A DNA stretch of 32,000 nucleotides from assembly GCF_010730195.1 (NCBI RefSeq), contig NZ_AP022613.1, positions 2,626,097 through 2,658,096 of the forward strand. Direction: 5' to 3'. The position numbers and the translations under genes were made by a program. This DNA comes from Mycobacterium conspicuum. Its GTDB lineage: Bacteria > Actinomycetota > Actinomycetes > Mycobacteriales > Mycobacteriaceae. The stretch's first letter is position 1, and each line of letters begins with the position of its first letter. The notes below the pieces were generated by a model. The model was not told the DNA's origin. It saw only the letters and a program-made list of their open reading frames with translations, and searched no databases. This document shows, piece after piece, positions 7,836 to 32,000 of the stretch.

Positions 7836-7989
7836 GAAGATGCCTGGTATTCGAGGCAACTTTGATACAGCTGATCGATGATCAGAAACCGCCAGCCCAA
7901 AAGGTTGGCACTCATACCACGCTAATTCGTTCCGGTCGTACGGCTGTGCGCGCCAGCGACCCGAACCAAGTTCGACGCGCGCCGCCGGC

Positions 7990-8268
7990 CCCTTTGTGCG
8001 AACGCAGGGCGGTTTGTGCATCCGCCACCGCCGTCGAAGCCCCGGGTGAAGTCCGATGGTGCGGACCCGTTCGGCTTGCCGTATTGGAAATTGCTCACGA
8101 TCTCCAGGCCGACAGTACGCAGCGCGTCGGCGTACTTTCGCGTTGCCGGTTTGGCGCCGAAGTTGTCCCCTGGGCGCGATTCCGAGACGTAGGTAATTAC
8201 ACCGCCGTACCCGGCAGCCTTGATTTGATCCGGTAGGATCTCCCGCGCAGAAAGTCGATAAGCCTCAT
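7990..8268 (-). pseudogene. Decayed remnant of a DUF1906 / Rv2525c-like glycoside-hydrolase-like gene
   Basis: The minus-strand translation ILPDQIKAAGYGGVITYVSESRPGDNFGAKPATRKYADALRTVGLEIVSNFQYGKPNGSAPSDFTRGFDGG matches my memory of the N-terminal half of Rv2525c-type proteins (...AIKAAGY.GAVRYVS..RPG...GKP......A..L...GL.IVS.YQYGK). A plausible start, ATG 8268 (MRLIDF), is in a different frame. After GFDGG the similarity continues only in another frame (AVADAQTALRSHKGAGGA) and then stops, so about two thirds of the gene is missing. Confidence 0.5.
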
Positions 8269-8840
8269 GGCTTCCTCTCTCAAGGGGAGCGTTCTGGGTC
8301 CGGTGACTCAACGCCGGATGCGGTTGCAATACACGAAGGCTGGATCCGCACCAAGCGTCCGGCGCGATTCTCCGATGCCGATCGCTCGCTTGGGATGCGT
8401 GGTTGACTACTCGATCCCGCGTAGCGACTACCGATTTCTCGCGTGCAGCGTTATGCACGAGTCTTCGAGACTTAGGGGGCAGCCACGCTGGCCGGCTATC
8501 CATAGCCCGGGCGCAAATGTTGCCGGCGGGGGAACCGTCATCGCCGTCCGGGTATAGAGCGTGGCCCCGGTTCGGTATCGCTAATGGCTCCGCGGGCAGC
8601 CGGACTGCGGCCCGGCGAGTTGATCCCCAAGTGACGGCCACGACCACCCCTATTTGGATTCACCGCCGAGCAGACGAATGCGAGTTATTGACGGCATCAC
8701 GGGCGCGGCGTCAGTCCCCAGAAGGCCGTGATCGGGTTGAGCGGTGTCCGCGGTGTGAACCGGGGCTGGGTCGATCAAGCCGTTGTCGCCGGGTCCCGGC
8801 ATCGGTGAACCACCCTCACGGCGTTGCGCTATGGCAGAGC

Positions 8841-9884: not shown

Positions 9885-10181
9885 TCATCCGGGGATGCTG
9901 CCCTCGACGGTGTCGGAGAGGCTGGCGCCGTTGCCTTGATCGATCCATCGGCGGTGCCAGTCGTCGCAGCTGTTCATGTCCCAGTTCAGATCGGGGGCCA
10001 GGGTGGCAACCAGTCTGATCCCGCCGTCGGGGCCCTTCTGGTACTTGTACGGCACCGGCAACGGCTGGCCCGGACACCACGTTCCGTAGCCCTTGTCGGC
10101 CTGGGCAATTCCGGTCGCCGGCCCAAATGCGGCCAACGCCAGCCCGCCACCGAGCAGCGCACCGGCGATCACCTTCTGCAT
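9885..10181 (-). CDS. Small secreted protein (98 aa, Sec signal peptide, two Cys)
   Basis: ATG at 10181 is preceded by GAAAGGA. The signal peptide is MQKVIAGALLGGGLALAAFGPATGIAQA|DKG. The mature part contains WCPGQPLP and NWDMNSCDDW, which resembles a family of small mycobacterial secreted proteins. The ORF-track start at 10325 adds a non-signal extension. Confidence 0.7.
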   Translation of the reverse strand: MQKVIAGALLGGGLALAAFGPATGIAQADKGYGTWCPGQPLPVPYKYQKGPDGGIRLVATLAPDLNWDMNSCDDWHRRWIDQGNGASLSDTVEGSIPG

Positions 10182-10361
10182 CAACACGGTCGTCGTCCTT
10201 TCTGCTTCGGCTTGTGTGTTCTGCCGACAGCTCACAGGACGAGGCCAGCTACCGATCCCAAATAACGTCGGCCGCTGCGCCTTCATCAAGCTCATGGCAT
10301 CCAAATACTGAGCGTTGTAGCACATTTTGGGTTGTGCGCCGGTACCGTTCTACTCACGCTC

Positions 10362-12098
10362 ATGTCGACCGTGATCGCAGCACCGGCAATGGTTGCCGCG
10401 TCGGCCGCCGACCTGGCCCGCGTCGGGTCGGCCTTGAGCGCTGCCACTGCACTGGCGGCCCGACCCACCACCGCAGTGGTGACGGCCGCCGCGGATGAAG
10501 TGTCGGCGGCCATCGCGTCGCTGTTCTCCCGGCACGGTCAGCGATTCCAGGCGCTCAGCGCCCACGCGGCCGCGTTCCATGCCAACTTTGTGCAGGCCCT
10601 CGACGGGGCAGCGACCGCCTACAAAGCCGCCGAAGCCGCCAACGCCTCTCCGTTGCAGGCGGTGGTGCGCACCGCCCAGATCCTGGCGCTGTTTTCACCC
10701 GTCGCGGCGGCCACCGGGCGCCCGCTGGTCGGCAACGGCGCCAGCGGAACTCCGGGCACCGGACAGGCCGGGAAAGCCGGGGGATGGCTCTATGGAAACG
10801 GCGGCGACGGCGGGTCCGGCGCCCAGGGGCAGGCCGGCGGCAACGGCGGAGACGCCGGCCTGATCGGCAACGGCGGCAGGGGCGGTGCCGGCGGTAAGGG
10901 CGCGGATGGCGCCACCGGAGGCAACGGTGGTGCCGGCGGGCGCGGCGGACTGTTGTACGGCAACGGCGGCGACGGCGGTGATGGTGGCAAGGGCGGCGAC
11001 GGCGCCACCGGCGGCGACGGCGGCGTGGGTGGGCTCGGCGGGCAAGGCGCGGCCTTCTTCAGCCACGCGGGCAGCGCGGGCGCCAACGGCCAAGCCGGCA
11101 CCAGCCTCGGCGACGGTGGTGGCGGTGGTGGCGGCGGCGGGTCGACGTCGGGGGAGTACTCGCCCTACGTCGACATCACGCTCTACCCCGGGCCCAACGG
11201 CTACGACTTCGCGGCCGCCGGCCAGGCGGGGGTCAACAACGCCACGCTCGCCTTCATCACCGCCGACCCCAACGGTCAACCGGCCTGGGGCGGCTACACG
11301 GCCTACGACATCGCCGGCGGCTCGCAGATCTCCTACATCAACAACCAGATCACCAACATGCACACCGCGGGCATCAACGGGACCATCTCGTTCGGGGGCG
11401 CGGCCGGCACGGATCTGTCCGCGGTGCCGGGGCAGACCCCCGCTGCACTAGAGCAGGACTACCTGACCGTCGTAAACACCTACCACATCTACAATCTCGA
11501 CTTCGATGTGGAAGGCGCGCTGCAGGGCAACACCCAGGCACTGACCACTCAGGCGCAGGCGATCGCCATGTTGCAGGCGGAGGAGGCGGCCGCCGGCACA
11601 CCCATCACGGTCTCCTACACGCTGCCGGTGCTGCCGACCGGTTTGGTCGAGGGACAGGGCGGCGGATACAACGTCCTGCAGATCGCTAACACCAACGGCG
11701 TCACCGTCTCTCGCGTGAACGTCATGGCGATGGACTATTACGATCCGTCGGTCACCGACATGGGAACCGCGGCGATCGACGCCGCGACGGCAACACACAC
11801 CCAGTTGATGACGCTGTATCCGTCGCTCACCAGCCAGCAGGCCTGGAACCTGGTCGGCGTGACGCCGCTGATCGGAATCAACGATGACCCAAGCGAGATC
11901 TTCACCCTCGCCGACGCCCACCAGCTGACCACCTTCGCCCAGCAGAACGGCATCGGTGAACTGTCCATGTGGGAGTTGCCGCGCGACGTCACCGGCACGT
12001 TGGGCTCGGTAGACGCCGTCGACGGCAGCGGAATCACCCAGACCCCGTTTGAGTTCTCGCAGATCTTCGAGCAGATCGAGAACGCATCCCAAACCTGA
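10362..12098 (+). CDS. PE-PGRS family protein with a C-terminal GH18 (chitinase-like) domain
   Basis: PE domain [25 protein letters not shown]...[36 protein letters not shown]...AYKAAE. Gly-rich GGxGG repeats follow. Then a ~310-aa domain carries ISFGG, LDFDVEG (DxDxE, nt 11499-11513), MAMDYY and SMWELPRD. Confidence 0.9.
10719..11147 (+). repeat. PGRS Gly-rich coding repeats, ending in nine consecutive Gly codons (11115-11141)
   Basis: Repeated GNGGxGG/GGAGG units are read directly from the translation. The run is GGT GGT GGC GGT GGT GGC GGC GGC GGG. Confidence 0.9.
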
Positions 12099-12200: not shown

Positions 12201-13979
12201 GTGATGCTCGATTCTGCTTCCGGTCAGCCCGCGAATTGGCTCGCCGACGATCCCTCGGCTGAAGTTCATGAATCGATGCGCTTGCGCAAGTTAGATTCCC
12301 TTGCGATCTTGGATACGCCGCCCGAACCGGAGTTCGACCAGCTGATCGCGCTGGCGGCGGTCGTGTGTGCGGCACCGGCGGCACTGATGTGCCTAGCCGA
12401 CGCCGAGCGGCTTTGGTTCAAGTCCGGATATTGTCCCAGCGCGAATTCGCTTGGAGCTGAGGAACTATGCGGCCGTGAGGTGGCCATGGCACCCGCCGGC
12501 CCCGTCGACGAACACGTCATCGGCGACGCCCTTTTGGCCGCCTACCCGGAGCTGAGCTTTTATGCCGCGGCGCCGCTGGTAACCACCGACGGCTACGTCG
12601 TGGGTGCGCTATGCGTGTTGGACCGACGGCCGCGGACTCTGACTGGGCCTCAAGAAGAACATTTGCGCGATCTGGCTGCCCAGGTGGTGAGCCACTTGGA
12701 ATGCCGTAGCCGGACCCGGCTGCTCGAATCGGAGCTCAGCGTGAAATCAGCCGAACTGGCCGCGCTGCGCGAACGGCAGCGGGTCCTCGATGGCGTCCTC
12801 AACCACACCGACGTCCTGATTTACGCCAAGGATCTCGACGGCCGCTTTCTCATGACCAACCCGGCCGTGGAACGGGCGACCCGGATATTGGACGGCCGAC
12901 TGATCGGGCACACCGACCACGACTTTTTCGATAAGCAGATAGCCGACGCATATCGCCACAACGACCTGCACATCATCGAGACCAGACAATGGCAGATCTT
13001 CGATGAAGACCTCCTTCATGCCGACGGATCTCGGCATACCTACCGTTCGACGAAGTTCCCGCTCCTCGACGAGACAGGCGCGGTGATCGGGATCGGCGGC
13101 GTGTCCACCGATGTCACCGAACTCGCCGCGGCCCGAGCGGCGCACGCCGAGGCCGAACAACGGTGGCGAGAGCTGGTCGAACAGTCCTTGATCGCGGTGG
13201 CAGTCACCGACAGCGACGGGCTGGTGGTCTACGCGAACCCACAAGCCGCGACCCTCTGTGGTGCCTCGTCGGCCGCCGACATCGAAGGTCGCCCACTCGT
13301 GGACTTCGCCGGCCCCGGCACCGAAAATGCGTTGTGCGCCATGATGGAGTCGATCCTGGCGGGCGGGCCGCCAATGTGTGCGCAGCGAGGTCGTCTGCAA
13401 CAACTCAGCGGTGCCCAGATCGTCGTGGAGTTCAGTGCCACCGCCATCAATTACGGCGGCGGCACGGCGTTACAGCTAGAGGTCCGCGACGTCACCGCCG
13501 CCGCCAACGCGCAAGCCGCACTCCGGCATTCGGCCTCAACCGACGCCCTCACGGGTTTGTTGAACCGCCGCGGGTGGGACACAGCCTTGAAGGCGCTGCT
13601 CGACCAAGAATCGATCATCGCGTTGATCGATCTGGACAACTTCAAGTCGTACAACGATGCGCACGGGCACAACGCCGGCGACGCGCTGCTTCGAGATTTC
13701 GCCGCCGCCGTCCGCTCGGGGCTACGCCAGCATGACGTGTTCGCGCGCTGGGGCGGAGAGGAATTCATCATCGCGCTGCCCGACACCGAAGTCGACCATG
13801 CCACCCACCTGCTCGACGGTATCCGCTGCTCCGTCCCGGCGACTCAAACGTGTTCTATCGGTTTCACGACCTGGCGACCCCCCGAGCCGTTCGCCCATGC
13901 CCTGACCCGCGCCGACCGCGCCCTGTATCAGGCCAAAAACCAAGGGCGGGACCGGATCGCCGGTGCCGCAGCGCACTGA
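12201..13979 (+). CDS. GAF-PAS-PAS-GGDEF diguanylate cyclase (no EAL domain)
   Basis: The start is GTG 12201 or ATG 12204. The N-terminal GAF carries LRKLDSLAILDTPPEPEFDQLIALAA. Two PAS-like segments carry VLIYAKDLDGRFLMTNPA and IAVAVTDSDGLVVYANPQ. The GGDEF domain has active site GGEEF (13752-13766) and I-site RQHD (13725-13736) exactly 5 residues upstream. Confidence 0.9.
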   Translation: MMLDSASGQPANWLADDPSAEVHESMRLRKLDSLAILDTPPEPEFDQLIALAAVVCAAPAALMCLADAERLWFKSGYCPSANSLGAEELCGREVAMAPAGPVDEHVIGDALLAAYPELSFYAAAPLVTTDGYVVGALCVLDRRPRTLTGPQEEHLRDLAAQVVSHLECRSRTRLLESELSVKSAELAALRERQRVLDGVLNHTDVLIYAKDLDGRFLMTNPAVERATRILDGRLIGHTDHDFFDKQIADAYRHNDLHIIETRQWQIFDEDLLHADGSRHTYRSTKFPLLDETGAVIGIGGVSTDVTELAAARAAHAEAEQRWRELVEQSLIAVAVTDSDGLVVYANPQAATLCGASSAADIEGRPLVDFAGPGTENALCAMMESILAGGPPMCAQRGRLQQLSGAQIVVEFSATAINYGGGTALQLEVRDVTAAANAQAALRHSASTDALTGLLNRRGWDTALKALLDQESIIALIDLDNFKSYNDAHGHNAGDALLRDFAAAVRSGLRQHDVFARWGGEEFIIALPDTEVDHATHLLDGIRCSVPATQTCSIGFTTWRPPEPFAHALTRADRALYQAKNQGRDRIAGAAAH

Positions 13980-13983
13980 AGGT

Positions 13984-14412
13984 TCAGTCGTAAATAACAG
14001 CCTTCCCTTGCCGCTCAAGATCGGCCAGCCCGGCCCGCATGGCCCGCAGCTGTTCGGGTGAATGCCCCGCCCAATCCGTCAGCTCACCAACGATTTTCAC
14101 GGGCTCTCGGGTGCGGAAGGAGTGCGTCGGATTTCCCGGGAACTTCTTGTCGGTCACGTTGGGGTCGTCCTCGAGGGCGCCTAGCGGTTCCACGATGTAG
14201 ATGCGGCCCGGGCCGTCGCCCGCGGCAAGTTCGGCTCCCCACACCGCGGCATCCAACGTGCGTGTCACGTAGACATGATTTGCGATGCGTCCTGTGCCGT
14301 AATTCGCCTGGTGCCCGGGCACGAGCAGATCACCGACGGCAAGATCGGCTTTCGTGCCGTGCAGAAGGGCGCCCGACTCGTGCAACTCAAACGGCTTCGG
14401 CCTAGCCGGCAC
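13984..14412 (-). CDS. arr: Rifampin ADP-ribosyltransferase (Arr)
   Basis: 142 aa from GTG 14412, with a GGGGGG RBS-like tract upstream. LLHGTKADLAVGDLLVPG...HVYVTRTLDAAVWGAELAA...GRIYIVEPLGALEDDPNVTDKKFPGNPTHSFRTREPVKIVGELTDWAGH closely parallels M. smegmatis Arr as I recall it (FYHGTKANLAIGDLL...AVWGAELA...YIYIVEPTGPFEDDPNLTNKRFPGNPTQSYRT). The length matches too. Confidence 0.9.
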   Translation of the reverse strand: MPARPKPFELHESGALLHGTKADLAVGDLLVPGHQANYGTGRIANHVYVTRTLDAAVWGAELAAGDGPGRIYIVEPLGALEDDPNVTDKKFPGNPTHSFRTREPVKIVGELTDWAGHSPEQLRAMRAGLADLERQGKAVIYD

Positions 14413-14434
14413 CGAGACCCCCCATCGAATCCGG

Positions 14435-15883
14435 TCAGTGGCAGATGTAGACCGCCTTGGTGTTGAAGTATTCCTCAATACCCTTCTTGCCGCGCTCGCC
14501 ACCCCAGCCCGACTGCTTGTGCCCGCAGATGGGCATCGCCGGGTCGGCGCCAAGGGCGCAGTTCACCCAGACCTGGCCCGCGCGAAGCTCATTCGCGACG
14601 CGGTGCGCACGCCCGACGTTTTCAGTCCAGATGGCGCCGGCCAAACCGTATTCGGTGTCGTTGGCCGCGGCGAGGACCTCGTCCTCGTCGTCAAACGGGA
14701 TGACGCTGCCAACCGGCCCGAAGATCTCCTCGCGGATGAGTCGCATGTCGGGCGTCGTGTTCGTCATGATCGTCGCCTCGTAGAAGTAACCCTTGCGGTC
14801 CATCCGTTTGCCGCCGGTGATCACCTCGGCACCCTTCGAAACGCCCTCGGCCACAATACCTTCCACGCGCTGGCGCTGCTTCTCGCTGATCAGCGGCCCA
14901 AGCACCGAGACGGGATCCTCGCTGCCGCCCATCGGCAGCATTTTGGCGAAAGCGGCCAGCCCCTCCACGACCTGGTCGTAGATGGGGCGCTGGACGTAGA
15001 TGCGCGACGTGCAGGAACAGTTCTGCCCCGACCCGACCAGCAGGCCCAGGCCCGCGTTCATGATCGCCTTGTCGAGGTTGGCGTCGTCGAACATGATCAG
15101 CGGCGACTTGCCGCCGAGCTCGAGGGTCAGCCGCTTGAGGTTGCCCGCCGCGGCCTGCACGATCAGCTTGCCGACCTCCGTCGAACCGGTGAACGAGATC
15201 TTGTCGACGTCGGGGTGCGCGGCGAGTGCGGCACCGGTCGTCTCGCCGTAGCCGGTGATGACGTTGAAGACGCCCTCGGGCACTCCCGCCTCGCGGAAGA
15301 TCTGCTCCATCATTAGCGCGGTGAGCGGGGTCTCCTCGGCGGGCTTGAGGACGCAGCTGCAGCCCGCGGCCAGGGCCGGCGCGGCCTTGAGCATCGCGAC
15401 GAAGAACGGCCCGTTCCAGGGAATGATCAGCCCGGCGACGCCGATCGGCTCGAGCTGGGTGAAGTTGTGGAAGTTGTCGTAGTGGCCGAGCAGGCCGTCG
15501 GTGACGACGTTGCTCGACTCGCCATGGATCTTGCCGACCCAGCCCGCGTAATACAGCAGCATGTCGTTGGCCACCTTGATGATCTGCTGCGCAGCGGTGG
15601 CATTCATGCCGTTGTCTTTGGACTCGGCGGCGGCGAGCTCGTCGAGGCGTTCCTTGATGATGGCGTTGGCGCGGAAGAGGATCTCGGCGCGCTGCTGGTG
15701 GGGCAGTTTGCGCCACACGCCCGACTCGAACGTCTCCCGGGCCCGGGCCACTGCCGCGTCCACGGCGGCCTGGTCGGAGTCGGGCACCTCCGCGATCTGC
15801 TCCTCCGTGGACGGGTTGAAGACCGGAACGATGCCCGAGCTGCGGCCTTCGACCGCAGGATCGGTGTCGATGGCGTTACTCAC
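14435..15883 (-). CDS. NAD(P)+-dependent aldehyde dehydrogenase
   Basis: 482 aa, GTG start at 15883 preceded by GAAGGA. Catalytic Glu motif is LELGGKSP, catalytic Cys motif is GQNCSCTSR, and FTGSTEVGK is present. Confidence 0.93.
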   Translation of the reverse strand: MSNAIDTDPAVEGRSSGIVPVFNPSTEEQIAEVPDSDQAAVDAAVARARETFESGVWRKLPHQQRAEILFRANAIIKERLDELAAAESKDNGMNATAAQQIIKVANDMLLYYAGWVGKIHGESSNVVTDGLLGHYDNFHNFTQLEPIGVAGLIIPWNGPFFVAMLKAAPALAAGCSCVLKPAEETPLTALMMEQIFREAGVPEGVFNVITGYGETTGAALAAHPDVDKISFTGSTEVGKLIVQAAAGNLKRLTLELGGKSPLIMFDDANLDKAIMNAGLGLLVGSGQNCSCTSRIYVQRPIYDQVVEGLAAFAKMLPMGGSEDPVSVLGPLISEKQRQRVEGIVAEGVSKGAEVITGGKRMDRKGYFYEATIMTNTTPDMRLIREEIFGPVGSVIPFDDEDEVLAAANDTEYGLAGAIWTENVGRAHRVANELRAGQVWVNCALGADPAMPICGHKQSGWGGERGKKGIEEYFNTKAVYICH

Positions 15884-18009: not shown

Positions 18010-19608
18010 TCAGGGCTGATCGAAGATGGTCATCCCGAGGCCGCTGGGGCTGTTCTGGATATACACCGGTGTCAGCAGGAACGGCGCCATCCCGGTATTG
18101 AACGCCCCGAAGCTGGACGGGTCGGTCGACGTGACCAACGGGCCGGTCGACGCCGTTGTCGTATACGAATACAGCAGCGTCGCACCGTCACTGGTGTAGA
18201 CGGAGATGGTTGTCCCGGCCGGCATGGCCTGGCCGAGCGAGAAGGGGCCGATGGTGATCGGGATTGTGTCGCCGCCGTAAATGGCTGCCGGGATGGCTCC
18301 ATACTGACCACCGGAATCGATCGCCGTGGTAACCGGTTGCGGCGCTCCGCCATTGATCGATACCTCCACGGTGGTCAACGGGGCGCCCGGGACCGACGCG
18401 TTGGGAATCGGCGTCAACGGGTTGGGGCCGAACTCCAGGTAACCCGCGGTGGGGCTGGTTGCGTTGATGAGCACACCCTGACTCAGTTGTCCGGGCAGGG
18501 CCGCGGTCACCGGGGAGGTGTTGGGGCCCAATGCATTTGGGCCGATACCCAGAATGCCGGTACCGCTATCACCCCAGTTGGTGAAGGGTGGCACGTCGGG
18601 GAACACCCACTCGATGGTCGGTAGCTTGGTGATCTCGATCGGGGAAAGGCCTCCGGGGAGCGGGATTTCGATCGGATGCGCCAGGCTCAAGGTGATGCCG
18701 CGGAGTGAAAAGAGCGGGACGTCAACGTTGATCGGCGTGGTCGCGATCCCATTTCCGAAATTCACGGTCGTGTTGAACGTGAGGCAGTAATCGGTGATGA
18801 AATTCCCCGAGCCGGGTTCGCCGTAGGTCACGTGAGTGAACCCGGTGGGCATGCCGAGGTGCTGGAGTCCGATGTCGGTGACGGGGATGACGAGGCCGGC
18901 GGATCCGGTGTCGACGATCACCGACACGCTGCGCCCGCCGTTGACCGAGATATTGACCATCTCGTCGATCGACCCCGAGTTCGTCCCGGTGGTGGACACC
19001 TGGTGCAGCGGGACGGTCGCGTTCACCGCCGTCCCGGCGCCGGCCACCCCGTTCTTGCCGGACAGCCAGCCGCCGAGGCCTCCGACACCCCCGACCGCGC
19101 CGGCACCGCCGGAGCCCCCAGCACCCCCATTGCCGATCAGCCCCGCGTTACCGCCGCTTCCGCCGGCGAGCCCCGCTGCCGTTTGGGAGTAACCGTTGCC
19201 ACCGTTGCCGTACAGGATTCCGCCGGGCTTGCCGTTGGGGTGCGCGGCCGTCCCGTTCGCGCCGTCGCCCACGAGCGGGCGCCCGGTCAGCGCCGCGACG
19301 GGCGAAAACACGGCCAGGCTCTGAGCGCCCGACGCCTCGGCGGCGGCGTACGCACTCTCCGCCGCGCTCAGGGCCTGCACGAACCGCGCATGAAACGCCG
19401 CCGCCCGCGCACTGAGCGCGTGGAACTGCTGGCCGTGACCGGAAAACAGTGACGCGATCGCCGCCGATACCTCATCACCGGCCGCGGCGATCACCCTGGT
19501 GGTCCGGGCCGCTGCGGCCGCATTGACCGCGTCGAGCGACGACCCGATGCTCGCCGCATCTTGCGCGGCCGCCGCCACCACCTCGGGTGCGGTGATCAGG
19601 TAAGACAT
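18010..19608 (-). CDS. PE-PGRS protein with C-terminal PecA-type aspartic protease domain
   Basis: PE domain MSYLITAPEVVAAAAQDAASIGSSL...YAAAE, followed by a short PGRS. The protease domain carries both catalytic triplets: VIVDTGSAGLVIP (Asp codon 18910-18912) and AIDSGGQYGAIP (Asp codon 18316-18318). Confidence 0.9.
   Translation of the reverse strand: MSYLITAPEVVAAAAQDAASIGSSLDAVNAAAAARTTRVIAAAGDEVSAAIASLFSGHGQQFHALSARAAAFHARFVQALSAAESAYAAAEASGAQSLAVFSPVAALTGRPLVGDGANGTAAHPNGKPGGILYGNGGNGYSQTAAGLAGGSGGNAGLIGNGGAGGSGGAGAVGGVGGLGGWLSGKNGVAGAGTAVNATVPLHQVSTTGTNSGSIDEMVNISVNGGRSVSVIVDTGSAGLVIPVTDIGLQHLGMPTGFTHVTYGEPGSGNFITDYCLTFNTTVNFGNGIATTPINVDVPLFSLRGITLSLAHPIEIPLPGGLSPIEITKLPTIEWVFPDVPPFTNWGDSGTGILGIGPNALGPNTSPVTAALPGQLSQGVLINATSPTAGYLEFGPNPLTPIPNASVPGAPLTTVEVSINGGAPQPVTTAIDSGGQYGAIPAAIYGGDTIPITIGPFSLGQAMPAGTTISVYTSDGATLLYSYTTTASTGPLVTSTDPSSFGAFNTGMAPFLLTPVYIQNSPSGLGMTIFDQP
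19039..19281 (-). repeat. PGRS Gly-rich coding repeats
   Basis: GNGGNG/GGAGGSGGAG units in the translation of 18010..19608. Confidence 0.85.
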
Positions 19609-23513: not shown

Positions 23514-25028
23514 GTGTCACTTCTGGTCGTGCTCCCCGAGGTAGTGCAGTCGGCGGCCGCCGAGCTGCGTGACATCGGGGCGGAACTGGGTGCGGCGCGG
23601 GTGGTCGCTGCGGCTCCGACGACCGGGCTACCGGCGGCCGGCGCCGACGAGGTATCGGTGGCGGTGGCGGCGCTGTTCACCGGCCACGGTCGGCAGTTCC
23701 ACACGGTTAGCCTGCAGGCCAGCGCGTTTCACCAACGGTTTGTCCGGGCGCTGCACTCGGGGGCCGGGGCGTACCAGCTCACCGAGGCGCTGGGTGGCCG
23801 CCCGCTGATCGGCAACGGCGCCGACGGCGGCCCCGGGCAACCCGGCGGGCCCGGGGGATGGCTCTATGGCAACGGCGGGGCGGGCGGCGCAGGCACGGCG
23901 CCGGGAATGGCCGGTGGGCCCGGCGGGGCCGCGGGGCTGATCGGCGACGGGGGCCGCGGGGGCGCCGGCGGCGCAGGCGCGAATGGGGGGGCCGGCGGCC
24001 GCGGCGGCTTGTTGTTCGGTCACGGCGGAACCGGTGGCCAGGCCGGCAGCGGCGCGGCGGGCGGCGCCGGCGGTGCCGCGGGATTGATCGGCAACGGCGG
24101 CGCGGGGGGTGCCGGCGTGAGCGGGCTTCATGGCGGCCCTGGCGGCAGCGGCGGCGCGCTGCTCGGCCGCACCGGGCCGGTGGGCGCCGGTCCGACGGGC
24201 ACCGTACCGCTGCAGCTCCTCAGCGGCGCTAACGGCGTCGAGCCAGCGATCAACATCTCCGTCAACGGCGGGCCCAGTGTGCCCGTCGTGGTCGATACCG
24301 GATCCGAAGGCCTGGTTATTCCGTTGCGGGACATCGGAATTCTCGGTCTCGGACACCCCACCGGCGTTACCGGCGTCGCCTATGGTTCGGGGATACTTCT
24401 GGTCTGCTGCACCTTTCAAACCACGGTGAATTTCGGGAACGGCATCGTCTCCGCGTCGACTAGCGTCAACATTCCGGTTCTGACGATCCCGATCTCGCTT
24501 GACGGTGTGCGCTTCATGTTGGCGGGCCAGACCTACGGTTACGCCGACGGCATCTTGGGCATCGGGGCCAACGCGACGGCCCCGGGGCCCAGTAGCGTGA
24601 CGACCGCGTTGCCGGGCGAGCTCAACCAGGGTGTGCTGTTCAACGAACCCCAGGGCTACCTGCAGTTCGGGCCCAACCCGCTACCCGCCGGGGTGCCGGT
24701 GGTCGGAGCACCGTTCACCGCCCTGAACGTATCCATCGACAACGGGCCGATGCACAGCGTTTCCGCCATCATCGACAGCGGCGGCGAGCAAGGCTACCTC
24801 CCTTCGTCGATTGGGAGGTCGATCGGGAGCGTGCCGCCGGGCACCACGATCTCGGTCTACACCAGCGACGGGAACACGCTGCTGTACTCGTACACGACAA
24901 CCGCGGGGAACAGCCCGACGGTGGTATCCGGCGACCAGATGAACACCGGCAACGAGCCCTTCGCGCTGGGACCGGTGTACATCTCGTACAGCCCGAGCGG
25001 CGTCGGCGCCACGGTCTTCGACACCTAG
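23514..25028 (+). CDS. PE-PGRS protein with C-terminal PecA-type aspartic protease domain (second copy)
   Basis: GTG 23514 (VSLLVVLPEVVQSAAAELRDIGAEL...), T7SS motif YQLTE, then a longer PGRS. Catalytic motifs are VVVDTGSEGLVIP (Asp codon 24294-24296) and IIDSGGEQGYLP. Its TAG stop overlaps the convergent stop of the next gene (CTAG, 25025-25028). Confidence 0.9.
   Translation: MSLLVVLPEVVQSAAAELRDIGAELGAARVVAAAPTTGLPAAGADEVSVAVAALFTGHGRQFHTVSLQASAFHQRFVRALHSGAGAYQLTEALGGRPLIGNGADGGPGQPGGPGGWLYGNGGAGGAGTAPGMAGGPGGAAGLIGDGGRGGAGGAGANGGAGGRGGLLFGHGGTGGQAGSGAAGGAGGAAGLIGNGGAGGAGVSGLHGGPGGSGGALLGRTGPVGAGPTGTVPLQLLSGANGVEPAINISVNGGPSVPVVVDTGSEGLVIPLRDIGILGLGHPTGVTGVAYGSGILLVCCTFQTTVNFGNGIVSASTSVNIPVLTIPISLDGVRFMLAGQTYGYADGILGIGANATAPGPSSVTTALPGELNQGVLFNEPQGYLQFGPNPLPAGVPVVGAPFTALNVSIDNGPMHSVSAIIDSGGEQGYLPSSIGRSIGSVPPGTTISVYTSDGNTLLYSYTTTAGNSPTVVSGDQMNTGNEPFALGPVYISYSPSGVGATVFDT
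23796..24188 (+). repeat. PGRS Gly-rich coding repeats
   Basis: Repeated GGAGG/GNGGAGG/LIGxGG units in the translation of 23514..25028. Confidence 0.85.
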
Positions 25029-26766: not shown

Positions 26767-26769
26767 TCC

Positions 26770-29700
26770 GTGAGCCGTCGGGTTGGCGGTCGAATGAAGC
26801 GTAACGGGGATGAGCCGGTCAAGATCCGTGGCTACCGTGTCGAGCTGGGGGAGGTTCGGGCCGCGCTGGCGGAGCTGGCGGGGGTGGATCGGGCGGCGGT
26901 GATCGTCCGCGAGGACCGCCCCGGCGACCGGCGACTGGTCGGCTATGTCACCGAGTCCCGCCGTGGGGCGGTGGACCCGGCCGGGGCGCGCGCGGGGCTG
27001 GCGGAGCGGTTGCCGTCCTACATGATTCCGGCCGAGGTGCTGGTGCTCGAAGCGCTGCCGTTGACCGCCGACGGCGACGTCGACACCCGCGCCCTGCCGG
27101 CACCGGAGCCGCGCATCGACCCCCGCATCAAGCAAGTGCTGCACGACGTCTTCGCGCGCCTGCTCGGCGTGGACGAGGTCGGCATCGACGAGTCGTTCTT
27201 CGATCTGGGCGGGGATTCGTTGTCGGCGATGCGGGCCATCACCGCGGTCAACGCGGCCCTGGACGTCGACCTCAAGGTGGGCGCCCTGTTCAACTCGCCG
27301 ACGATCGCCCAGTTGGCGGCGCGCATCGACGGCAACTCTGGTGGGCTCATGCCGTTGCGGGCCGGGGCGCGGCCCGCGGTGATTCCGTTGTCGTTCGCGC
27401 AGAGCAGGCTGTGGTTCATCGCCCAATTGCAGGGGCCCTCACCGGTTTACAACCGGTCGATGGCGCTGCGCCTGCGAGGGCAGCTGGATGTCGACGCACT
27501 GCAGGTGGCGCTGGTCGATCTGGTGGGTCGGCACGAGAGCCTGCGCACCGTGTTTTCGGCGGTCGACGGGATACCCCAGCAACTGATCGTTTCGGGCGAT
27601 CGCGCCGACTTCGGCTGGGGGGTCGTGGATGCGACGGGATGGCCGGCGGACACGTTGAGCGAGGCCATCGAAGAGGCGGCGCGTGGCTGTTTCGACCTGG
27701 AAGCCGAAATTCCGTTCCGGGCAAGGCTTTTCCGTGTCGCAGACTGCGAGCACGTGTTGCTCATCACGCTGCACCACATCGCCGGAGACGGTTGGTCGAT
27801 CGGTGTGCTGGCCGCCGATCTGGGAGCGGCCTACGTCAGCCGGTGCGCCGGCCAGGCCCCGGGCTGGGCCGAATTGCCGGTGCAGTACGTCGATTACGCG
27901 CTGTGGCAGCGGGAGAATCTCGGTGATCTGGCGGACCGAAACAGCCCATTGGCGGCCCAAGTCGGCTATTGGGAAGAGGCGCTCGCAGGCATGCCCGACC
28001 GCCTTGCTCTGCCGACCGATCGGCCCTACCCGTTGGTCGCCGACCACCGTGGCGCCAGCGTGGTGGTGGAGTGGTCGGCCGACTTGCAGCGGCGGGTGGG
28101 AAGCGTTGCCCACGAATATAATTCGACCAGCTTCATGGTGGTTCAAGCCGCCCTGGCGGCGCTGTTGTCGCGCCTGAGCAGCAGCGCCGACGTGGCGGTG
28201 GGATTCCCGATCGCCGGCCGCGGAGATCCGGCCCTGGACGGCCTGATCGGATTCTTCGTCAACACCCTGGTGTTGCGGACCGACCTGACCGGGAATCCGA
28301 CCTTCACCGAGCTACTCGATCAGGTACGACAGCGAAGCCTGTCCGCCTACGAGCACCAGGACGTGCCCTTCGAAGCGCTTGTCGATAGGCTCAACCCCCC
28401 GCGATCGCGGACGCATCACCCGCTGATCCAGGTGATGTTGGCCTGGCAGAACTTCACCTGGCAATACGACGACCCCGCCGCCGGGCTGGCGCTGGGGGAT
28501 CTGCAAGCAAGTCCCATGGCGCTGCGCACCCACACCGCCCGCATGGATCTGGTGTTCTCCCTGGCTGAACGCTTCACCGACAACGGTGTGCCCGACGGCA
28601 TCGTCGGGACGGTGGAATTCCGCACCGACGTGTTCGACGCCGCCAGCATCGAGACGCTGGTGCGGCGTTTCGAAAAGGTCTTGGTCGCGGTGACGGCCGA
28701 CCCGACGGCGCGGGTGTCGTCGTTGGATCTGCTCGACGCCGGGGAACGGGCCCTGCTGCAGGGCTGGGGTAACCGGTCGGCATTGACTCGGGCCGCGCCC
28801 GCGGCTGTGGCGATTCCCGAGGTGTTTGCCGCCCAGGCCGCGCGGTCGCCCGACTCGGTGGCGCTGGTGTGCGCAGACCGCTCGTGGACGTACCGGGACG
28901 TCGAGGAAGCGTCGAATCGGTTGGCGCACTTACTTGTTGACCGTGGCATCGGCTCGGGCGCGTGTGTGGCGTTGCTGTGTGAGCGGTCGGCGGAGGCGAT
29001 CGTCGCGATCCTGGCGGTGCTCAAGACCGGGGCGGCGTACGTACCGCTGGACCCGGCCCACCCGGCGGCGCGTACCGATTTCATGCTCGGGGATGCCGCG
29101 CCGACGGCCGCGATCACCACCGCCGCACTGCGCCCGCGGCTGGATGGACACGACTTGCCCGTCCTCGACGTCGCCGACCCGTGCATCGCCGGCTACCCGT
29201 GCACGAGCTTGCCCGCGCCGGCGGCGGACGGCATCGCGTACGTCATCTACACCTCGGGCACGACCGGTGCGCCCAAGGGTGTGGCCATTACGCATCGCAA
29301 CCTGACCCAGCTGATCGCGTCGCTGGACGCGGGCCTCCCGACGGCCGCGGAGCAGGTGTGGACGCAATGCCACTCCTATGTCTTCGACTTCTCGGTGTGG
29401 GAGACCTGGGGTGCGCTCTTGCGGGGCGGCCGGCTGGTGGTGGTGCCCGAGTCGGTGGCGGGCTCGCCGAGCGACTTCCACGAACTGCTGGTCTCGCAGC
29501 GGGTCAACGTGATCACCCAGACCCCGTCGGCGGTGGGGGCATTGTCGACCGACGGGCTGGACTCCGCGGCCTTGCTGGTGGGCGGCGAGGCATGCCCGGC
29601 CGAGGTGGTGGATCGGTGGGCCCCCGGGCGGGTGATGATCAACGCCTACGGTCCCACCGAAACCACCATCTATGTGGCGCTGAGCGGAGCCCTGCGGGCG

Positions 29701-32000
29701 CATTCGGGGGTGCCGCCGATCGGGTCGCCCGTGCCCGGGGCGGCCCTGTTCGTGCTGGACGATTGGTTGCAGCCGGTGCCGCCCGGTGTGGTCGGTGAGT
29801 TGTACGTGGCCGGCGCCGGTGTGGGCGTCGGATACCTGCGCCGGGCGGGCCTGACGGCGGCGCGCTTCGTGGCGTGCCCGTTCGGTGGAACCGGTGCCCG
29901 GATGTATCGCACCGGGGACCTGGTGTGCTGGCGCGCTGACGGCGCGCTGACGTACGTCGGGCGCGCGGATGAGCAGGTCAAGCTGCGTGGCTATCGCATC
30001 GAACCCGGCGAGATCCAGGCGGCGCTGGCCGCGCTGCCCGGCGTCGAGCAGGCGGTGGTGATCGCCCGCGAGGATCGCCCCGGGGACAAGCGCCTGGTGG
30101 GTTACATCACGGGCAGCGCGGACCCCGCGGCGGCGCGCGAACTGGTCGCCGAGCGGCTGCCCGGCTACATGGTGCCGGCCGCGGTGGTCGCGGTGGCGGC
30201 GCTGCCGCTGACGGTCAACGGCAAGCTCGACACCGGTGCGCTGCCGGCGCCGGAGTACCACGACGGTGACCGCTACCGCGCGCCGTCCACGCCGATCGAG
30301 GACATCCTGGCCGGCATCTACGCCCGCGTGTTGGGCGTCGAGCGCGTGGGTGTCGAGGATTCTTTCTTCGACCTGGGCGGGGATTCGCTGCTGGCGATGC
30401 GCGTGGTCGCCGCGGCCAGCGCGGCCCTGGACGTCGACCTCAGGGTGGGCGCGCTGTTCGATGCGCCGACGGTCGCGCGGTTGGCCGCTCGCGTCGACGG
30501 CGGCTCCCGGGGGCTGGCGCCGCTGGTGCCGGCGGATCGGCCCGCGGTGATCCCGCTGTCGTACTCCCAAAGCCGGTTGTGGGTCATCGACCAGCTGGAA
30601 GGTCCGTCTCCCCTCTACAACATGGCGATCGCGTTGCGCTGCACCGGCCACCTGGATACCGAGGCGCTGGGCGCGGCACTCGCCGACGTGGTCGGCCGAC
30701 ATGAGAGCCTGCGCACCACGTTTCCCGCCGCCGCCGGGGTGGCGCGGCAGGTCGTTGTGCCCGCGGAGCGCGCGGACTTCGGCTGGGAGGTCGTCGACGC
30801 GGCCGACTGGTCGACGGCCCGGCTGCAGGACAGCGCCGAGGAGGAAGCCCGCAGCCCGTTCGATCTGGCGACCGAAATACCGTTGCGGGCAAAGCTTTTC
30901 CGGATCACCGACTCCGAGCACGTGCTGGTGGCCGTGGTCCACCACATCGCCGCCGATGGCTGGTCGATCGGTGTGCTGGCCGCCGATTTGGCCGCAGCCT
31001 ACGCAAGCCGGTGCGCGGGTCAGGCGCCGGACTGGGCGCCCCTGCCGGTGCAGTACGCCGACTACGCGTTGTGGCAGCACGCGCAGTGGGGTGACCTCGG
31101 CGGGCAGTTGGCGTATTGGGAGCGGGCCCTGGCCGGACTGCCCCAACGCCTGGAGCTGCCCACCGATCGGCCGTATCCGTTGGTGGCCGATCACCGGGGC
31201 GCCAGCGTGACCGTGGAATGGCCGGCCTCGTTGCAGCAACAGCTGGCTTCGGTTGCCCGCGAACACCATTCGACCAGCTTCATGGTGATCCAGGCGGCGC
31301 TCGCGGTGCTGTTGTCGCGGCTGAGCGGCAGCGTCGACGTAGCCGTGGGATTCCCGATCGCCGGTCGCGGCGATCCCGCGCTGGATGGGCTGGTGGGGTT
31401 TTTCGTCAACACCCTCGTGTTGCGCGTCGACCTCGCCGGGGACCCGACCTTCACCGAACTGCTGGCCCAGGTGCGTCGGCGCAGCCTGGCGGCCTACGAG
31501 CATCAAGACGTGCCGTTCGAGGTGCTGGTGGATCGGCTGCAACCCCCACGGTCGCTGAACCATCATCCCCTGATCCAGGTCCTGCTGGCCTGGCAGACCA
31601 ACACCCCGGGCGAGCTGACTCTGGGTGACGCGCGGGCCACCCCGATGCCGATCGAAACCCACACCGCCCGAATGGATTTGGTGTTCTCCCTGACCGAGCG
31701 GCGCACCGGTACCGGTGCGCCGGCCGGGATCGAGGCGACGGTGGAATTCCGGACCGACGTGTTCGACGCGGCCAGCATCGAAACCCTGGTCGACCGGCTG
31801 CGGCGGGTTCTGGTCGCGACGACGGCCAATCCGGGGCTGCGCTTGTCGACGGTGGACCTGCTCGACGAGGGTGAGCACCGCCGCCTCGGACGCTGGGGCA
31901 ACCGGGCGGTGCTGGCCCAGCCCGCGCCGCCCGCGCTGTCGATCCCCGCGGCGTTGGCCGACCAAGTCGAGCGCACGCCCGATGCGGTGGCGGTGAGCTT
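26770..32000 (+). CDS. Non-ribosomal peptide synthetase, 3'-partial (runs off the window). Domain order seen: degenerate A-subdomain, T, C, A, T, C, A(start)
   Basis: This frame is not in the ORF track because it has no stop within the window. I translated it by hand at about 10 points from 26767 to 32000 and saw no stop. The first possible starts are GTG 26770 and ATG 26794. All core motifs are listed in the domain features below. Confidence 0.9.
26794..27105 (+). other. NRPS: C-terminal subdomain of an adenylation domain only (A8-A10), with degenerate A10
   Basis: [16 protein letters not shown] is motif A8. A10 reads [10 protein letters not shown] instead of LPLTxNGKxD, so the invariant Lys codon position (27076-27078) is GAC (Asp). 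No A1-A7 core lies upstream. Confidence 0.8.
27127..27330 (+). other. NRPS: thiolation (PCP) domain 1
   Basis: [15 protein letters not shown], with the phosphopantetheinyl Ser codon at 27217-27219. Confidence 0.85.
27379..28750 (+). other. NRPS: condensation domain 1
   Basis: C1 motif is [12 protein letters not shown]. The active site is HHIAGDG (27772-27792). FFVNTLVLR and YEHQDVPFE are also present. Confidence 0.85.
28807..30240 (+). other. NRPS: complete adenylation domain
   Basis: Motifs are [80 protein letters not shown] and an intact A10, [10 protein letters not shown] (Lys codon 30223-30225). Confidence 0.9.
30289..30490 (+). other. NRPS: thiolation (PCP) domain 2
   Basis: [15 protein letters not shown], with the Ser codon at 30385-30387. 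Confidence 0.85.
30547..31900 (+). other. NRPS: condensation domain 2, followed by the start of the next adenylation domain at ~31936
   Basis: C1 motif is [12 protein letters not shown]. The active site is HHIAADG (30940-30960). [19 protein letters not shown] at the window end is the A1 region of the next module. Confidence 0.85.

Follow-up and report, generated by a model that had tools for sequence, protein, structure and literature searches.

A PE-PGRS gene of Mycobacterium conspicuum with an intact-looking GH18 chitinase domain

The gene and its modules

Mycobacterium conspicuum has a gene in which a type VII export domain is joined to an intact-looking GH18 chitinase domain. We argue that this gene probably encodes a secreted chitinase. 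A PE-PGRS module would replace the signal peptide, often accompanied by CBM2, of the inspected non-mycobacterial relatives. The window analysed is the whole 32,000-nucleotide stretch from contig NZ_AP022613.1, and all coordinates below are counted within it. The order of modules in the 578-residue product is PE, GRPLVGNG, PGRS, a run of nine glycines and GH18. A sequence-only reading of the window had proposed this architecture, and it is upheld by Pfam, by the motif positions and by matches to solved chitinases. Every motif and coordinate in that reading was reproduced by script on the translation, including DFDVE at nucleotides 11499-11513. The gene and its parts are as follows.

10362..12098, + strand: PE-PGRS-GH18 coding sequence, 578 amino acids plus stop (open reading frame and translation)
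10362..10661, + strand: PE domain, predicted type VII secretion targeting module, residues 1-100 (Pfam PF00934)
10620..10634, + strand: YKAAE, residues 87-91, YxxxD/E motif of the YxxAE sub-type, with a predicted PecA site between A90 and E91
10716..10739, + strand: GRPLVGNG, residues 119-126, conserved junction of PE linker and PGRS (motif shared with most homologues)
10728..11114, + strand: PGRS glycine-rich repeats, residues 123-251 (Pfam PF21526)
11115..11141, + strand: run of nine glycines, residues 252-260, hinge before the catalytic domain (motif script)
11148..12095, + strand: predicted GH18 catalytic domain, residues 263-578 (316 residues), compact (beta/alpha)8 barrel (PDB matches, AlphaFold2, Foldseek)
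11385..11399, + strand: ISFGG, residues 342-346, GH18 SxGG motif on strand 3 (motif script, model)
11499..11513, + strand: DFDVE, residues 380-384, catalytic DxDxE at the end of strand 4, with E384 the predicted acid/base
11724..11741, + strand: MAMDYY, residues 455-460, motif after strand 6 (aligns to MAMDY in 9BUF and MTMDYY in 2DSK)
11970..11972, + strand: W537 in SMWEL, strand 8, conserved GH18 active-site Trp (SMW in 9BUF, AFW in 2DSK)

The ATG at 10362 (MSTVIAAP) is the likely start because homologues begin MTFVIAAP or MKFVIAAP. An upstream TTG at 10332 was considered as an alternative and rejected, since the N-terminal homology fits the ATG. The identical 578-residue protein is found on LQOR01000021.1 (GCA_002102095.1, M. 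conspicuum DSM 44136) and in an independent Logan assembly. It must be noted that the cluster representative P0001, from another sample, differs from the window protein by one residue, at position 106 (RTAQSLALF in P0001, RTAQILALF in the window), despite a tabulated identity of 100%.

The GH18 domain

Solved structures are the best guide to the C-terminal domain. The last 323 residues were searched against the PDB with phmmer. They match the hydrolase domain of Streptomyces venezuelae Chitinase 1 (9buf_A, E=3.3e-58) and the catalytic domain of a Pyrococcus furiosus chitinase (2dsk_A, E=5.2e-37), and both alignments span the entire 310-residue domain. LDFDVEG falls on VDFDIEG in the first and LDFDIEA in the second, which puts D380, D382 and E384 on the catalytic triad. 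In the 3A4W chain the catalytic Glu is replaced by Ala, which agrees with this structure being described as a catalytic-site mutant. The other strand-end motifs have counterparts in the window protein too: PYVD, LAFI, SFGGA, DFDxE, (S/F)(Y/F)TLP, VNxMxMDY, TPxIGxND and xxW. Alignment A1 holds 11 diverse relatives, and there is no variation in it at SFGG, D-F-D-x-E-G, M-A-M-x-Y or the strand-8 Trp (W275 in A1).

The fold agrees with the sequence. An AlphaFold2 model of residues 263-578 has eight strand-helix units, a mean predicted local distance difference test score of 82 and a predicted template modelling (TM) score of 0.84. There are only 12 residues between strand 7 (236-241 in model numbering) and helix 7 (254-267), so the domain has no chitinase insertion domain. 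Foldseek against the PDB ranks 9BUF first (TM 0.84/0.90, 42% identity), and the P. furiosus chitinase structures come next (TM 0.82/0.86, 30% identity). The 50 Foldseek matches listed consist entirely of chitinases and related GH18 proteins, chi-lectins among them. The window domain therefore shares with 9BUF and with 2DSK, 3A4W and 3A4X (P. furiosus ChiA AD2) a compact fold and the catalytic and strand-end motifs, at TM scores of 0.82-0.90. The preprint on 9BUF describes a GH18 'Clade I' that is compact, has no insertion domain, comes largely from the Actinomycetota and is enriched in carbohydrate-binding modules. Sequence and model place the window domain in this 'Clade I', that is, among the compact chitinases like P. 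furiosus ChiA (PF-ChiA-like).

The GH18 part has a ratio of nonsynonymous to synonymous change (dN/dS) of 0.14-0.24 against six close orthologues. The domain is under purifying selection. It looks catalytically competent, and by analogy with the assayed Clade I relatives it would be chitinolytic. The sequence-only reading had called the domain apparently active. That claim stands up, with DFDVE aligned to the DxDxE of two solved chitinases and invariant in A1, with purifying selection, and with a modelled fold that returns GH18 chitinases at TM above 0.8 to 9BUF and 2DSK. Its suggestions of endo-N-acetylglucosaminidase or lysozyme-like activity found no support. Neither type of enzyme appears among the PDB sequence matches or the 50 Foldseek matches listed.

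The PE domain and the PGRS region

The N-terminal end is a canonical PE domain, as had been proposed. Pfam matches residues 4-94 to all 91 positions of the PE model (positions 1-91) at E=3.6e-29, with 101 bits against a cut-off of 22. Among solved structures it matches PE8 (5xfs, E=2e-13) and PE25 (about 1e-4), and the NCBIfam LipY model also matches it, through the model's N-terminal part (E=1.9e-26). WD40-repeat matches also came up in the PDB search. These were discounted as sums of many weak repeats with no single passing stretch. YKAAE aligns to YGVTE of PE8, which is a YxxxD/E type VII motif. Across 65 related sequences the secretion motif has the form YxxAE in 46 of the 54 motif matches counted. 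A second clade of PE-PGRS-GH18 proteins (P0044 and P0050-P0055, including Mycobacterium sp. TY814) has at least three members with Phe for the motif Tyr: FATAE in P0044, FASAE in P0050 and FARAE in P0053. No Y...[DE] motif was found at the expected position in P0051, P0052, P0054 or P0055.

The GRPLVGNG junction is at the same position in most homologues. Pfam finds PGRS (PF21526) at residues 123-190, with E=1.8e-11 and 44.7 bits against a cut-off of 27. Glycine makes up 44% of residues 101-262, and there are 18 overlapping GGxGG motifs in this region. The junction, the glycine-rich repeats and the PGRS score all fit membership of the PE_PGRS subfamily. The PGRS stretch is about 130 residues long. 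The hinge that ends it is exactly nine glycines, as had been read from the sequence. A related PE-PGRS-GH18 protein in the Mycobacterium sp. metagenome bin VLC_033 (locus L012) has a long poly-proline hinge in place of the poly-glycine.

Relatives and the exchange of modules

The window protein is not alone. In a protein search, an N-terminal PE occurs together with a GH18 of the window type in more than 50 clusters (90% identity). Sources given by name are M. marinum, M. ulcerans, M. liflandii, M. shottsii, M. basiliense, the M. gordonae group and M. saskatchewanense. Several Mycobacterium strains, metagenome bins and M. paraense (locus L010) have them too. These sequences imply that PE-GH18 fusions are widespread in the slow-growing mycobacteria. 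The entries from the M. kansasii complex are 'partial' records, N-terminally truncated, with CBM2-GH18. No protein of the M. tuberculosis complex is named among the GH18-bearing matches listed. A scan of genomes found PE upstream of GH18 at seven loci among the matches listed, all of them in Mycobacterium or metagenome bins of close relatives.

The closest relatives form an orthologue group from the M. simiae complex and related strains (M. paraense, Mycobacterium sp. E2327, E796, IEC1808, 1081908.1 and 1245805.9, and several metagenome bins). They share the PE-PGRS-GH18 layout, are 544-599 residues long, and their GH18 domains are 78-90% identical to the window's. Their flanks differ from those of the window gene. 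One side has a gene for a small membrane protein, and the other has a gene that looks P450-like by its N-terminus, followed by further conserved genes. The proteins of M. marinum (ACC40460.1/WP_012393793.1), M. liflandii (WP_015355330.1) and M. ulcerans (ABL03629.1) also have the module order of the window protein. All three share with it a PE with YxxAE, GRPLxGxG, a glycine-rich PGRS and a C-terminal PF-ChiA-like GH18 with DxDxE. The window GH18 is about 61-65% identical to that of the M. marinum protein, and its PGRS is shorter. The loci differ as well: the M. marinum gene lies between sigA and an Rv2704-like gene, whereas the M. conspicuum gene lies between alpha/beta-hydrolase and GGDEF genes.

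The modules in front of the GH18 domain vary. In the relatives inspected from Streptomyces, Streptacidiphilus and Parafrankia, the place of the mycobacterial PE is taken by a signal peptide, in most cases with CBM2. The Streptomyces proteins inspected are unlike the window protein in having neither PE nor PGRS. Mycolicibacterium relatives have long N-terminal regions that resemble a signal peptide followed by repeats. Some mycobacterial relatives are PE-CBM2-GH18 or PE-CBM2-CBM2-GH18, and M. marinum has a PE-CBM2-GH18 paralogue, ACC42687.1. Those of the M. gordonae group (P0040), M. basiliense (P0042) and M. saskatchewanense (P0039) have GH18 domains 70-75% identical to the window's, with one or two CBM2 in the middle, whereas the window protein has only PGRS there. 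A neighbour-joining tree of the GH18 domains, which is rough and has no support values, interleaves the PGRS-type and CBM2-type proteins. Because the two kinds interleave, the tree suggests that the middle module has been exchanged repeatedly. The sister PE-CBM2-GH18 proteins point to an insoluble polysaccharide as the substrate.

The PE domain may have been exchanged too. In the same orthologue pairs (loci L005-L010) the PE domains have 61-66% amino acid identity and a synonymous divergence (dS) of 0.86-2.5, compared with 78-86% and 0.52-0.66 for the GH18 domains. The stronger divergence of PE could reflect exchange of this module with paralogous PE_PGRS genes. One homologue looks decayed. 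The match in M. innocens MK13 (locus L013, 4001-4643) covers only residues 105-314, in a short frame with a scrambled C-terminal end, and is probably a pseudogene.

Export, processing and catalysis

We propose the following route for the window protein. From what is known of the family, the PE domain would pair with EspG5 and with a PPE partner that is unlinked, and export would be through ESX-5. Pfam scans of the flanking genes found no PPE gene beside it. The PGRS region would hold the protein on or near the mycomembrane. A surface aspartic protease of the PecA type would then cut YKAAE after Ala90, removing the PE domain. A second cut, in the Gly/Ala-rich linker, may follow. PecA itself (PE_PGRS35) is an aspartic protease of the cell surface that takes off PE domains (PMC6819658). 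It cuts after Ala, often inside the secretion motif and mainly in the YxxAE sub-motif, and it frees the C-terminal hydrolase of the PE-cutinase MMAR_0369 (PMC13578627, 2026). YKAAE has Ala at the P1 position within YxxAE, like these substrates, so cleavage between A90 and E91 is our prediction.

The nearest known systems are LipY, the PE-lipase of M. tuberculosis, and MMAR_0369. Both consist of a PE export module, a linker and a C-terminal hydrolase, as the window protein does, and both have the PE removed by PecA at the cell surface. They differ in their cargo, which is an esterase rather than a glycoside hydrolase. PE removal is proposed for the window protein because it is reported for MMAR_0369 and for LipY, and ESX-5 export with PecA processing would follow by the same analogy.

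At or near the cell surface the GH18 domain would hydrolyse beta-1,4-linkages of N-acetylglucosamine (GlcNAc) by a retaining, substrate-assisted mechanism. E384 would be the acid/base and D382 would position the N-acetyl group. The missing insertion domain suggests an open cleft with mixed endo/exo, non-processive action. Most likely the enzyme lets a slow grower of water and soil feed on chitin in its surroundings, such as that of fungi and arthropods, rather than serving a function specific to vertebrate hosts.

Alternative activities and roles

It is worth considering what else this protein could be. One can imagine that the GH18 domain acts mainly on GlcNAc glycans other than chitin, such as host N-glycans in the manner of an endo-beta-N-acetylglucosaminidase, N-acetyllactosamine (LacNAc) and LacdiNAc, or mucin-type glycans. 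The protein would then be a host-directed effector. M. conspicuum can infect humans, and the proposed delivery route is associated with virulence. The ChiA proteins of Listeria monocytogenes and Legionella pneumophila do occur at lower Foldseek ranks, and the chitinases of these two pathogens are linked to host interaction. However, they are far weaker matches (TM about 0.6, 13-15% identity) than the true chitinases from soil and archaea that head the list (identities of 42% and 30%, TM above 0.8). No EndoH, EndoF or EndoS-type enzyme is among the 50 matches listed. The CBM2 of the sister proteins is typical of enzymes for insoluble polysaccharides, and the absence of any named M. tuberculosis-complex protein from the GH18-bearing matches listed also speaks against a host-directed role. 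We consider this scenario unlikely.

A peptidoglycan hydrolase or lysozyme that acts on the cell's own wall or on competitors is very improbable. Public annotation calls homologues 'putative bifunctional chitinase/lysozyme precursor', and some GH18 enzymes, such as hevamine, show weak lysozyme activity. That annotation is an automatic transfer and not data, however, and neither a lysozyme nor a muramidase turned up among the sequence or fold matches. It is even harder to credit that the domain is a non-catalytic lectin that binds chitin or other glycans, like the chi-lectins, or that the gene is a decaying remnant. The chi-lectins SPS-40 and SPP-40 do appear, far down the fold list, and M. innocens has a degraded copy. 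Yet DxDxE, SxGG, MxMDY and the strand-8 Trp are intact and invariant in the window protein and its relatives, and the reading frame is full-length and identical in two independent assemblies. The low dN/dS also counts against this reading.

A variation on the chitinase itself should also be mentioned. PGRS may have functionally replaced CBM2, so that the protein is a surface chitinase held at the mycomembrane and dependent on contact. It would then be an ESX-5 effector in interactions between kingdoms and not a simple nutritional enzyme. Its targets could be the surfaces of fungi, amoebae or arthropods, or host GlcNAc-glycans. This is speculative and we think it rather unlikely. A secreted chitinase for environmental chitin is still our preferred reading.

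Several points weigh against that reading and must be set beside it. Pfam places Glyco_hydro_18 (PF00704) at residues 288-486 with E=9e-6, and the score of 26.0 bits does not reach the gathering threshold of 29.6. A Pfam check of the product, which the sequence-only reading had called for, therefore gave PE and PGRS above their cut-offs and GH18 below. Some close homologues pass at 29.8-31.9 bits, barely over the cut-off, and the PF00704 model fits this compact GH18 subfamily poorly. We override the weak score because of the direct matches to solved chitinases over the full domain, and these, with the modelled fold and the catalytic motifs, carry the family membership. The last 40 or so residues of the AlphaFold2 model have low confidence. 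For PE-linked GH18 proteins the searchable literature offered the 2016 prediction paper discussed below and proteomic listings, but neither enzymology nor secretion genetics nor a phenotype, and it held no biochemical or genetic characterisation of a PE-linked glycoside hydrolase of any family. Among the flanking genes Pfam recognised hydrolases, Arr, a GGDEF protein, an aldehyde dehydrogenase and the like, whereas genes for chitin uptake, GlcNAc catabolism or chitobiose did not turn up in the window. The locus is not syntenic with those of the closest homologues. A tblastn search of five window neighbours gave no match at nine mycobacterial GH18 loci, which were from close relatives and M. 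marinum with flanks of about 4 kb (8 kb in M. marinum) where available. With no syntenic neighbours, the context gives no functional support.

Findings in other species fall on both sides. For export, M. marinum offers an indirect argument. Its homologue ACC40460.1 (654 residues) lies beside a sigA-type gene in a ppgK/suhB/Rv2704-like neighbourhood. Yan et al. 2024 (PMC11395111) list MMAR_2010 as 'PE-PGRS family protein|655 AA', just ahead of MMAR_2011 sigA. It was detected in the M. marinum proteome, where it is in their table of identified PE/PPE proteins, and it is also in their EspG5 pulldown table. ACC40460.1 is very probably MMAR_2010. However, this match is made through its length and its sigA neighbour and not through a direct accession link. 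Papers on M. ulcerans report three annotated chitinase genes (MUL_2681, along with MUL_2210 and MUL_0371) and that chitin promotes growth. In chitin-supplemented medium two of the three genes were down-regulated and the third was unchanged, and the authors read this expression as evidence against simple nutritional use of chitin.

The neighbourhood in the window

Two genes of the PecA family lie 6 and 11 kb downstream of the GH18 gene, which makes three PE-PGRS genes with an enzymatic C-terminus within 15 kb. Either could be the processing protease, although the link to the chitinase is our conjecture. These and the other neighbours are listed here.

18010..19608, - strand: PecA-family PE-PGRS aspartic protease, candidate processing protease (Pfam PE, PGRS, PE-PGRS_C E=4e-81)
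23514..25028, + strand: second PecA-family PE-PGRS aspartic protease, candidate processing protease (Pfam PE, PGRS, PE-PGRS_C E=5e-101)
7922..8647, - strand: open reading frame with an Rv2525c-like glycoside-hydrolase-like domain, 1.7 kb upstream (PF08924 E=1e-10)
9885..10235, - strand: small divergent open reading frame, 116 amino acids in the public assembly, with a hydrophobic signal-peptide-like start MQKVIAGALLGGGLALAAFGPATGIAQA
12201..13979, + strand: GAF-PAS-PAS-GGDEF diguanylate cyclase gene, immediately downstream of the chitinase gene
13984..14553, - strand: rifampin ADP-ribosyltransferase gene, downstream of the chitinase gene (Arr-ms E=9e-49)
about 26767..32000, + strand: long open frame of at least 1744 codons, running off the end of the window

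The frame at 7922..8647 is a gene in the Logan assembly and is not called in the NCBI assembly. The small divergent frame at 9885..10235 has no Pfam match and was not found beside the homologues in other species. The long frame at the end of the window has motifs that we take to be features of a non-ribosomal peptide synthetase (the end of an adenylation domain and a carrier-protein motif). The long open reading frames on the opposite strand over the same region are probably antisense artefacts. Rfam gave no match on the entire window, and a scan for promoters and terminators around the GH18 gene found nothing.

Place in the known family and significance

PE proteins with a chitinase domain have been predicted before. 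Sultana et al. 2016 (PMC4758615) describe them in M. liflandii, M. marinum, M. ulcerans, M. gastri and M. gordonae. Their template for the domain was 2DSK, which also matches the window GH18, and D-x-D-x-E was conserved in their models. They also predict PE-GH12, PE-GH64 and PE-CBD-GH18 proteins, and their S5 table includes ACC40460.1 and WP_015355330.1. M. conspicuum is absent from their survey list. The sequence-only reading had presented the protein as a new class of effector, and that claim does not survive: the architecture was predicted in 2016, is widespread and is partly annotated. It had also said that it knew of no glycoside hydrolase among the characterised PE fusions. This still holds, since we found no characterised example in the searchable literature. 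The window protein adds M. conspicuum to a family that was catalogued, by prediction, in 2016.

Its members now extend beyond the 2016 listing, and PGRS and CBM2 seem able to stand in for each other as the middle module. YxxAE, present in the PE domain, has lately been reported as a context for PecA cleavage. If the activity were demonstrated, it would prove biochemically, for the first time, that glycoside hydrolases leave by the PE/ESX-5 route as lipases, cutinases and proteases do. The long-suspected tie of environmental slow growers, such as M. ulcerans, M. marinum and their relatives, to chitin-rich niches would also become accessible at the molecular level.

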